From positions 1-33,177 of IMG/VR virus record IMGVR_UViG_3300032330_001458: a stretch of 33,177 nt of DNA; one strand, 5' to 3'. Both the position numbers and the translations under genes were made by a program. The DNA comes from a virus (Duplodnaviria > Caudoviricetes). This document shows positions 19,287-23,317 of this stretch, one piece after another (the stretch's first letter is position 1; each line of letters begins with the position of its first letter). The notes under the pieces are model-generated. The model had not been told where the DNA came from, ran no database searches, and saw nothing but the letters and a program-made list of their open reading frames with translations.

Positions 19287-19598
19287 ATGGCTTTCCATAA
19301 ACCGTTCGTGTGGTGTCAACAGCTAGGGCTTGACTCTCACCATGCAATCTCTGATGGCGTGGCTTTATGCGGTGCTGGCGCTGCTACTCAATGGGCGGCG
19401 TGGATGCTGCTAAAGCCCGATGAGATGCGCCAGAATAAGCAGTGTCCTAGATGCCTTGGAAGGGTTGCGGAGATGCGGCAGAAGGCCGCAGTTTTAGGCC
19501 GCATTGGAGGCAGTCAGAAAAGCGCAAGAAAGATCGTGGCGGCAAGGGAAAGATGGGTGAAACGCAAATCTATAAGCGTCGCTTATACAATGGCTTAG
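19287..19598 (+). CDS. Small basic protein with CxxC and LGRIGG..KS..K..AAR motif
   Basis: Motif recurrent in small phage DNA-binding proteins; start uncertain. Confidence 0.45.
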   Translation: MAFHKPFVWCQQLGLDSHHAISDGVALCGAGAATQWAAWMLLKPDEMRQNKQCPRCLGRVAEMRQKAAVLGRIGGSQKSARKIVAARERWVKRKSISVAYTMA

Positions 19599-20047
19599 CC
19601 CTTCTGTTGGTACTCATCCTCCCGATTCATAGCCTCCCATCGCTCAAGAGAAGTGATAGCTTCTCGAACGTCTGTCGCAACGTCTTTGTGTTTGCGGCCG
19701 CATCGCAGGAGCTTTTTAATCGCCTGGAAAATCACAGGGTCAGTGATTCCGTACGCTCTGGCAATGCGGTATGGGTCGGCAATCACGCCGCCTATCTTGA
19801 TGGTGTAAACGTCGTCAGATTTTGCCGCATTGTCATAAAGCGACCTGCCTGGGATTATTGGCGGTTGATTGCCGTTCATCCATTCGTCTGAATGTCTCCA
19901 ATAAGGAAACATGTTCTTTGTACGAATCCTGTGGCATGAAGTGGCAGTGTTGCTTTTAACGTCAATCGTTCCAAATTGGTCGTAATCACTATCCTTCGGC
20001 GGATCGCTAGCAACATCGCGCCAAGGGTTGTTTGGGTTGTCGGTCAT
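19595..20047 (-). CDS. DUF3310/SaV-like domain protein
   Basis: C-terminal DPYRI..AY.ITDP...AIKKLLR.G...KD...D.REAI.SLER; N-terminal WRDV..DPP motif. Confidence 0.65.
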   Translation of the reverse strand: MTDNPNNPWRDVASDPPKDSDYDQFGTIDVKSNTATSCHRIRTKNMFPYWRHSDEWMNGNQPPIIPGRSLYDNAAKSDDVYTIKIGGVIADPYRIARAYGITDPVIFQAIKKLLRCGRKHKDVATDVREAITSLERWEAMNREDEYQQKG

Positions 20048-20182: not shown

Positions 20183-20434
20183 TTAGCTAACCGTTTCGGT
20201 GAATGTGCCGTTTTTGAAAAACTTTGGATCTTTTACAATGTCTAAAGCTCGATTGACAAGAGACTGCAAATCCTTGCCTCTGAGGTCGTATCCAGAGCCT
20301 AGAACAGTTTCGCCCTCTGCTTTGTGTGGAGTATATCCGGTAAGCTGGAATCCTTGCTTGTTCATTGCGCTGGCGGTAATCTTCACAGTCCCGTTCATTG
20401 AAAGTTGGAGAAGTTGATCTTGAAGTGTTGTCAT
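20183..20434 (-). CDS. Hypothetical protein downstream of the structured RNA leader
   Basis: ATG at 20434 with A/C-rich leader; the upstream extension runs through RNA hairpins. Confidence 0.55.
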   Translation of the reverse strand: MTTLQDQLLQLSMNGTVKITASAMNKQGFQLTGYTPHKAEGETVLGSGYDLRGKDLQSLVNRALDIVKDPKFFKNGTFTETVS

Positions 20435-20668
20435 GGTTTTGATTGCTGATTTACTGAATACCGGGAAGCGGTGAGCTAGAAGAAACGGCATAGGTTCCCC
20501 ATCAAGGAGAACCCATGCCAGACCGTTCAAGCGGAGCCGCTTAGAAGTTTCCGACACTCTCTTTCGAGACAGCATCTTTTACGGGGCTTCCAATCCGACA
20601 GAAAAGTTTTGTAGCTGAGTGTGTATTTTGCTGGCGACTGTATTTCAGTCCGTCGCCTCCGTAGAAAA

Positions 20669-20770
20669 GTGAGTAGAATTGAGCGGGCTGGATTTACACC
20701 AGCAACACCTCCCAGGCTTTAGCACCCCGACAGGGCCTCTATATTTGGGCTACCGCTCAATTCTACTCAC
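20669..20770 (-). ncRNA. tRNA-like cloverleaf with an 18-bp extended acceptor stem
   Basis: Perfect IR 20669-20686/20753-20770; UA-GCCC..AGAGGC D arm; GCUGG-UGUAAAU-CCAGC T arm; enlarged anticodon arm; no CCA. Confidence 0.6.
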
Positions 20771-20806
20771 AAGCTCTTATCATGGGCTAGCTATTCGCTT
20801 TCATGA

Positions 20807-20898
20807 CCTGGAACGAGCACAAAAAAACCGAACTGGTTCCAGCAGTCCGGCTTAGTTGCAAAGGCTCGCAAGTAGTCGGGATCACTCCTGGAACGAGC
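20807..20898 (-). ncRNA. C4/CI-like antisense attenuator (repeat-hairpin-repeat)
   Basis: 12-nt direct repeats at 20807-20818 and 20887-20898 flank a terminator hairpin whose loop is complementary to both repeats. Confidence 0.7.
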
Positions 20899-20918
20899 GA
20901 AACCTTTTCGATGCGCTT

Positions 20919-20946
20919 ACTATGACAATTCGCCGCAACCAATCAA
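20919..20946 (-). promoter_or_regulatory. Putative sigma70 promoter for the structured RNA
   Basis: TTGATT-N16-CATAGT on the minus strand, just upstream of the first repeat. Confidence 0.4.
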
Positions 20947-21105
20947 GCAAAAATGTATGATACGCATTATTTGACATATTTTGACTTTCCACCTGGGGGC
21001 GATGTGACAAATTTGAGAAATCCTACACTATCCTCGCATTTGATCGGATTGATTTCCCTTGCCTTTTTGCGTGGTTTTGGCAGTCTTGCGCGTCTACATG
21101 GTGTC

Positions 21106-23039: not shown

Positions 23040-23317
23040 TGCCCAATTTGGTCACCGCCGCAAAACGTCGCATTTATCGCATTTGTCAAATCGTCGCCTT
23101 TGGTGCGGTTTTTGGTTCAGGCACTCCAGAACCGTTGATTTTCCAAGGACTGGCGACAAAAGGGAAATATAATTCAGCTGTTTTGACTGCCTGAAAGCTG
23201 TCGCTCTGGCGTCGATTCGCGCCTAGAGCCAAGCTGTTTGAATAAGATTTGAAGCAAAATGTGACAAATGTGAAGTTTAATACGACAAATTTGCATTTGG
23301 TGCGTTGTTTGGTGCGT
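23040..23317. other. Putative intact attP region
   Basis: Non-coding region before the integrase with tandem TTTGGTGCG-like repeats (12-bp period) at 23099/23111 and 23296/23308. Confidence 0.6.

Follow-up and report, generated by a model that had tools for sequence, protein, structure and literature searches.

A tRNA-like cloverleaf on an 18-pair stem in a phage record and its rebuilt-elbow leucine tRNA relatives

What phage RNAs shaped like tRNAs do has been an open question since the description of T4 species 1 RNA, and the virus record IMGVR_UViG_3300032330_001458 (Duplodnaviria; Caudoviricetes) poses it again. On the minus strand of the window, which here means the whole 33,177-nucleotide stretch that was analysed, lies a cloverleaf with the outline of a tRNA, closed by a perfect stem of 18 pairs and lacking a CCA end. 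Is it a working tRNA, the remains of one, a processing signal for its neighbours, or an RNA with a task of its own?

The 33-kb record is estimated to be 42% complete and encodes a terminase, a portal protein, an integrase, an antirepressor and recombination genes; the source phage is likely temperate. Both named best relatives of the integrase come from Verrucomicrobiaceae, a sequence likeness that may give a weak hint to the host, and the integrase was not found in the 301 genomes searched on the host side. No close relative of the phage was found by blastn against cultured phages or with two neighbouring proteins against viral contigs, and a protein search returned only the record itself, leaving the 27-nt arm, the stem extension and the leader described below with no close counterpart for comparison. 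No RNA dataset with this phage was listed, and the one DNA dataset gave a uniform contig, with no variants, joints or rearranged form. The cloverleaf belongs to a small minus-strand cassette (Table 1), which has plus-strand structural genes on one side and, on the other, a gene cluster of the plus strand resembling a lysis module. A 15-nt motif upstream of the cassette (21002-21016) recurs three times upstream of the integrase, in direct and inverted orientation (23077-23091, 23259-23294), and is a possible shared operator or integrase arm site; the frequency of its 10-nt core alone is not above chance.

Table 1. Features of the minus-strand cassette, in the order of transcription (positions in the window).
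Feature	Position	Strand	Remarks
Putative promoter	20919..20946	-	4/6 in each hexamer, 16-nt spacer, TG before -10; found by eye, below promoter-scan threshold, unlisted
Leader hairpin, antiterminator partner	20882..20900	-	7-nt loop within copy 1 of a 12-nt direct repeat
Terminator-like hairpin	20821..20853	-	11 pairs and U run; 7-nt loop is the exact complement of the leader-hairpin loop
Copy 2 of the 12-nt repeat	20807..20818	-	just 3' of the U run
Acceptor extension (stalk), 5' strand	20760..20770	-	11 bp
tRNA-like core	20679..20759	-	81 nt: 7-bp acceptor, U8A9, D arm, enlarged arm, T arm, A73; no CCA
Acceptor, 5' strand	20759-20753	-
D arm, leucine-type	20735..20750	-	no GG; U18 = 20743, A19 = 20742 (register from relatives)
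Arm at anticodon position	20708..20734	-	27 nt: 3 bp, bulge, 5 bp including two G-U, 9-nt loop
T arm	20687..20703	-	5 bp, loop UGUAAAU (G55, U56; U56 can pair with A19)
Acceptor, 3' strand	20686-20680	-
A73	20679	-
Acceptor extension, 3' strand	20669..20679	-	starts at A73
Downstream terminator-like hairpin	20486..20520	-	15 pairs, z -5.9; likely end of the non-coding unit
Orphan ORF	20183..20434	-	83 aa from this ATG (102-aa form in database); no relative found
150-aa ORF, last gene of the cassette	19595..20047	-	common phage family phrog_2452 (PHROGs match), function unknown

The sequence, coordinates and anatomy given for the tRNA-like cloverleaf in the first-pass annotation all match the letters. 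The D stem has 3 bp and the D loop reads AAAUAUA, UGUU joins the 27-nt arm to the T arm, and the 3' strand of the extension is followed by four U, with 4 further pairs predicted beyond an internal loop. The perfect closing stem of 18 bp is borne out as well: its 18-nt arms show 100% complementarity free of G-U pairs, and among the window's perfect inverted repeats within 150 nt they rank first in length, the runner-up having 12. The cloverleaf is the minimum-free-energy structure of the element (-55.9 kcal/mol, z -6.06; 0 of 200 shuffles were equally stable), with pair probabilities of 0.94 for the D stem and at least 0.99 for the closing stem and the T stem, and the same cloverleaf is predicted for the 81-nt core without its extension. 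All pairs of the acceptor (7/7) and of the T stem (5/5) are kept, and the triplet at 20721-20719 is a possible vestige of a leucine UAA anticodon.

Programs that recognise tRNAs pass over this element. ARAGORN called 0 genes on it, so the expectation that it would not be taken for an ordinary tRNA held, and Rfam returned nothing at gathering score and only chance-level matches up to an E value of 10. Measured against the tRNA family (RF00005), it has the 7-bp acceptor, U8, A14 and the 5-bp/7-nt T arm, while G18 G19 with U55 C56, and the 5-bp anticodon stem with its 7-nt loop and U33, are missing.

The relatives of the cloverleaf tell more about these losses. A first set of motif patterns yielded 230 loci, the window's included, in which 67 five-pair T arms comprised 15 distinct UGUAAAU cloverleafs. 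Acceptor and T stems of these cloverleafs covary (99.5% paired, two-sided change in 10 of 12 pairs), which is partly built in, as members were chosen for pairing; their anticodon arms are mostly irregular, CCA is mostly absent and many lie within tRNA clusters. A second pattern, built from the window cloverleaf's own D arm and requiring G55 and not the loss of GG, gave 64 loci with 57 distinct matches. After a strict filter over all loci, 66 distinct cloverleafs with this D arm were retained, 58 with G55, 7 with U55 and 1 with A55; the filter kept out of this tally those whose T stems are imperfect, L255, L259 and L289 among them. A model of acceptor and T stems only (R1) was not used to define members, since normal tRNAs reach about 46 bits with it.

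A GG in the D loop is found in just 1 of the 58 G55 cloverleafs versus 6 of the 7 with U55, and in tRNAs called by ARAGORN it accompanies 102 of 103 TTC loops and none of 7 TGT loops (123 of 127 distinct genes scored). GG and TTC are thus lost jointly, as a rebuilt elbow. The window cloverleaf, with a D arm of this type without GG and a G55 T loop, belongs to what we call the rebuilt-elbow phage tRNA-Leu group, a grouping defined in this analysis and not a published family. The first-pass annotation was therefore right that GG and TTC are absent, but their absence is not decay: it is an elbow that recurs, and the cloverleaf is not a one-off.

The contacts 19-56 and 18-55 are described as those of the standard tRNA elbow (PMC10424219). 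Taken in a fixed register, with position 19 as the third-last base of the D loop, pair 19-56 is Watson-Crick in 52 of the 58 G55 cloverleafs; a shuffle control, which ignores relatedness, averaged 40.4 and was as high in 0 of 20,000 runs. The usual G-C is replaced by A-U in the window cloverleaf and by C-G in four related Streptomyces phages, the latter probably a single event. Among the nine G55 cloverleafs without C56, five pair at 19-56 and four have no Watson-Crick pair there. In a second UGUAAAU group, A19-U56 is possible only in a shifted register.

How such an elbow may come about is seen at locus L043 (1190-1350, minus strand), where a normal tRNA-Asn is followed or preceded in tandem, at a distance of 12 nt, by a sister element with the UGUAAAU loop: in the sister GG has become AG, the T loop is rewritten, the anticodon loop is enlarged and the stems are kept through compensatory change, so the rebuilt form can arise anew from a normal tRNA. 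As a separate observation, the elements at L047, L061, L099 and partly L038 have a common non-coding motif 50-250 nt upstream, which has no Rfam match and is possibly another unknown RNA.

Further scans set bounds on the distribution. None of 14 loci from a metagenome scan and 11 from a genome scan passed the cloverleaf filter, a further motif scan covering 22 of 64 parts added no new member among the 119 loci listed, the family pattern matched 0 of the 201 genomes sampled from the probable host phylum, and one motif pattern matched 3 of 401 genomes in host chromosomes, fewer than its reversed control. In the literature searches the family was undescribed; tRNA-like viral RNA candidates are reported in general terms in PMC10690425, whose supplement of 10,006 candidate viral RNAs may hold it.

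The decoding relatives point to the parentage. A regular anticodon arm is present in 34 of the 58 G55 cloverleafs, all of which are leucine tRNAs with a short variable loop, together covering all six anticodons; CCA is encoded in 15 of the 34. Of the 24 that fail the strict anticodon test, about 5 have near-regular loops and may decode, and the rest do not look decoding. A73 is kept in 14 of these 24 and missing from 10, and as their middle arms also differ, the non-decoding relatives need not have a single task or target in common. Between D arm and T arm the window cloverleaf has 31 nt, versus 23 nt in 42 of the 58. Taken with the ARAGORN and Rfam misses, these tallies support the earlier proposal that the element is derived from a tRNA, under selection and not an ordinary tRNA.

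Non-decoding cloverleafs are often alone, ARAGORN finding no tRNA at all in 12 of 16 loci examined and Rfam none in whole records with lone copies (3 of 3 and 5 of 5, the window's record included). No consistent partner gene emerged among the 42 of 65 listed neighbouring ORFs that were scanned. Several side observations concern the same loci. Lone mimics stand immediately before the major capsid gene in unrelated phages (L247/L263, L281), and others before long U runs (L258/L297). Of 14 loci scanned, 7 (L253, L258, L269, L289, L297, L302, L011) have an HNH or endonuclease VII gene close by, within the set of nearest ORFs, a count without a background control. Among the decoding relatives, L248-L310 (e.g., L252 2494-2874 and L257 2494-2731) contain phage tRNA-Leu genes that are widespread, often in tandem, and combine an A18/G55 elbow with a short variable loop. 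L255 (2490-2565, minus strand) holds a short-arm tRNA with a Tyr anticodon, a Leu-type D arm and a possible U19-A56 pair, which ARAGORN misses.

Bacterial LeuRS is described as reading A73 and D/T-loop contacts and not the anticodon, and E. coli tRNA-Leu variants can still be charged after loss of the anticodon arm and the variable arm (PMC9976931). A leucine tRNA is for this reason a natural parent, because its anticodon arm could drift while the body stays recognisable, and LeuRS or a defence enzyme directed at tRNA-Leu is for the same reason the foremost candidate target. E. coli LeuRS also depends on G18:U55 and G19-C56 (PMC9976931), and both are changed in the window cloverleaf.

Through a weak blastn match (E about 1), an RNA without annotation came to light in Stanwilliamsviridae that infect Streptomyces, where 22 of 23 records match, 17 of them over at least 80% of the query. 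This conserved, tRNA-like RNA of about 105 nt adjoins a tRNA-Asn (L231 1428-1530, that is, NC_070785 about 74999-75107, and L232-L237) and combines a small arm of 4 bp with a long arm whose loop is conserved. In an alignment of seven members, 97.6% of cells are paired and 9 of 24 pairs show two-sided change across five helices; Mildred21, in which only 30 nt matched and the D-arm motif was not shown, was excluded. The RNA is unannotated in all 6 of the annotated records that carry it, where it sits between annotated tRNAs or ORFs, and it has no match in Rfam. The Streptomyces-phage RNAs are the best-scoring relatives of the window cloverleaf, with differing middle parts, and their sequences indicate that several genera of Streptomyces phages conserve derivatives of this kind. 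As the conserved version occurs in cultured, genetically accessible phages (Wakanda, BillNye, Genie2, LilMartin, Tomas, Coruscant and Naboo), its function is directly testable.

The 11-pair extension has a different history. That a decaying pseudogene would hardly keep it was the original argument for selection, and this argument is weakened, for the extension is private to one copy (1 of 66; the next longest is 10) and a single inverted duplication could yield it. Eleven given pairs would come about by chance roughly 2 times in 10 million (arithmetic), so the extension arose either by selection or by one inverted duplication, and the evidence for selection comes from the relatives. In the extension the leader is base-paired to A73 and the trailer, with a probability of about 1.0 for leader and trailer, and bacterial RNase P is described as contacting single-stranded leader bases -3/-4 and the 3' CC (PMC13254310); since these are here paired and absent, respectively, the stalk would impede RNase P, and in the predicted fold it would hide the leader and 3' end used by RNase P and by CCA addition. 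RNase III, in turn, is reported to need a helix of about 11 bp at minimum and ideally 22 (PMC3867540), which 18 bp plus 4 predicted pairs provide, all 21 of 21 genomes sampled from the probable host phylum have RNase III, and in B. subtilis it releases the scRNA from a flanking stem (PMC1935012). By analogy, RNase III would release the cloverleaf from its stalk; of the processing signal for RNase P or RNase III suggested at the outset, the RNase III half stays plausible, but the RNase P half is weakened.

Upstream of the cloverleaf lies an attenuator-like leader (20807-20900, minus strand), which has no Rfam match and a fold z of -3.3. For a nascent RNA ending at 20835 the minimum-free-energy structure is the antiterminator (-24.2), whereas in the complete leader the terminator (-32.9) beats the antiterminator (-28.9). 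The 15-pair terminator-like hairpin follows 150 nt downstream of the cloverleaf, the intervening stretch having ordinary structure (z -0.6). These predictions outline a non-coding unit of roughly 430 nt, of which the cloverleaf is probably the main structured content and into which read-through is probably regulated. Two tiny ORFs of 5 and 6 codons lie between the leader terminator and the cloverleaf (20787-20804 and 20762-20782, minus strand); the second stops within the stalk, and translating it could open the extension.

From these elements the following reading may be assembled. An attenuator-controlled non-coding unit would yield a transcript that carries the cloverleaf, RNase III would cut the 18-pair stem and set free a tRNA-shaped RNA, trimming could then expose A73 for CCA addition, and the freed cloverleaf would bait a host factor that recognises the body of a tRNA and not its anticodon. 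Its parts differ in how firmly they can be held. That the cloverleaf is a selected, non-decoding tRNA derivative we regard as very probable. Its transcription together with the leader is probable, and nearly as much may be said of an L-shape kept through the predicted A19-U56 pair. Release by RNase III, with trimming that could afterwards expose A73 for CCA addition, is an evenly balanced proposition, and action in trans, as decoy or ligand, falls slightly short of even. The whole, a leucine-tRNA-derived mimic that is released by RNase III and works as a trans-acting decoy for some tRNA-binding factor of the host, is accordingly put forward tentatively, with a little more doubt than any of its parts. 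As to the target, a variable arm on a kept body points to a factor that reads the body and not to an anticodon nuclease; the earlier idea of a decoy for anticodon nucleases specifically is weakened, as a regular 7-nt loop is missing from the arm, which differs freely from one relative to the next.

A broader reading is speculative and rather unlikely to hold in full: phages would repeatedly have turned tRNAs, above all leucine tRNAs, into widespread, unannotated, non-decoding RNAs with a swapped elbow, which escape tRNA handling and bait host proteins of tRNA-targeting defence or sensing; phages without tRNA clusters would carry one as a regulated cassette, and the present one would have gained an RNase III stalk for release without RNase P. 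Independently of this, the group is one that standard annotation misses, with a traceable parent (a rebuilt-elbow tRNA-Leu) and a covarying tertiary pair, and the parent tRNAs, with their short arm and A18/G55 elbow, bear on how far the architecture of tRNA can be rewritten. If the derivatives are decoys, they would amount to an RNA-only counter to tRNA-targeting defence.

The cloverleaf could instead work in cis, as a processing or stabilising signal whose cutting (by RNase III, or by RNase P after opening) or whose blocking of nucleases sets the level of the transcript that carries it, the released RNA being jobless. This is an unlikely account, though one with several points on its side: relatives that stand alone are intergenic, upstream of the major capsid gene (L247/L263 and L281) or of U runs (L258/L297), the middle arm is variable, A73 and CCA are frequently lost, and the cloverleaf itself is inside a leader region upstream of two ORFs. 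A plain hairpin would however suffice for such a signal; the D/T elbow pair covaries, the Streptomyces version, which lies among tRNAs, has a conserved loop, and the strong terminator-like hairpin stands between the cloverleaf and the ORFs.

Decay is appreciably less probable than that. In this account, a rebuilt-elbow tRNA-Leu was copied, acquired an inverted duplication at some point and is functionless now; the account draws on parent tRNAs that already had neither GG nor TTC, on an extension whose uniqueness and want of G-U pairs also fit a single recent inverted duplication, and on the failure to find close relatives that would support conservation. Against this stand the perfect acceptor and T stems, the change of the 19-56 pair on both sides, a record that (at 42% complete) has no tRNA as a source, and the like derivatives conserved in several Streptomyces phage genera.

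A shade less probable than decay is that the cloverleaf is the effector RNA of an antisense immunity switch like C4 or CI, which would control termination in its own leader. The 12-nt repeat does flank a terminator whose loop is its complement, and C4 and CI RNAs are described as processed phage RNAs (PMC5499578). The complementarity, however, lies in the terminator loop and not in the cloverleaf (about 7 pairs, G-U included, which a rough estimate places at chance level); a genome target scan, which had no control, gave only bulged duplexes and no clear target; Rfam has no C4 match; C4 and CI have no T loop; and the antirepressor is 5 kb away and lacks the 12-nt repeat. A mimic of a CRISPR repeat was also considered and dropped, as no repeat hairpin forms and Rfam is blank.

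That the element is a working if odd leucine (UAA) tRNA, or an amber reader with CUA in another register, is very improbable. The Leu-type D arm, A73 and a UAA triplet rightly placed relative to the 3' stem strand would suit it, and an encoded CCA is dispensed with by more than half of the decoding relatives, but the wide spacing between D and T arms, a 9-nt loop without U33 and ends locked in the stalk speak against it. Stop-codon recoding was rejected, TAG ending 1 of 23 long plus-strand ORFs. Least probable of all is that the inverted repeat acts as DNA, in a cruciform, a miniature transposon end or an attachment-site remnant, for which one may cite its 18 Watson-Crick pairs without G-U, a plus strand that folds too (-50.6 versus -54.5) and the operator-like motif common to 21002-21016 and the region upstream of the integrase, but which is countered by its single copy in the record, by inner 7 pairs that are the acceptor stem of a strand-specific tRNA fold, by an integrase 2.5 kb away and by the lack of a rearranged form in the one contig examined.

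Among known systems, C4 RNA (P1/P7) and CI RNA (P4) are processed small phage RNAs and have a site-antisite-site layout. The leader described here has a like layout, which is served by its terminator loop and not by the cloverleaf; C4 and CI pair with targets, whereas the cloverleaf has no clear one. The stalk finds its counterpart in RNase III release stalks such as that of the B. subtilis scRNA precursor, in which the flanking sequences form a long stem with a structured RNA in its loop, as predicted here. rRNA stalks are further examples. In the literature searches, an RNase III release stalk on a tRNA mimic was not described.

With canonical tRNAs and bacterial tRNA-Leu, the window cloverleaf shares the 7-bp acceptor, U8A9, A14, A21, the 5-bp/7-nt T arm, U54, A58 and A73, but it lacks G18G19, U55, C56, U33, CCA and a long variable arm, and has a 27-nt arm and an 11-bp extension instead. 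The annotated tRNA-Ile(GAU) of Salmonella phage PVP-SE1 has both GG and TTC replaced too (A18, G55, G19-C56); unlike the cloverleaf, rebuilt-elbow tRNAs of that type possess CCA and an anticodon arm of regular form, and they receive a tRNA call.

Species 1 RNA (rnaC, 139 nt) and species 2 RNA (rnaD) of T4 are stable phage RNAs from a tRNA region. In rnaC the T arm closes on an acceptor-like stem and the 5' part is remodelled, which makes for a likeness, but it has a canonical UUCGAAU T loop, is located in a tRNA cluster and has neither such a D arm nor a stalk. To our knowledge, no function has been assigned to rnaC. The Y RNA YrlA, also found in phages, is described as a tRNA mimic with D, T and acceptor parts, one such RNA being cut by RNase P and gaining CCA (PMC4201824), and has tRNA mimicry in common with the cloverleaf. 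According to the same source, YrlA adjoins Ro60 and has pseudouridine 55, whereas the cloverleaf has G55 and no Rfam match, and no Ro60 was found among 45 ORFs compared with PHROGs and 16 compared with Pfam in this 42% complete record. The window cloverleaf is thus a tRNA mimic like T4 species 1 RNA or YrlA and a member of neither, since YrlA needs Ro60 and U55 and rnaC keeps its TTC loop.
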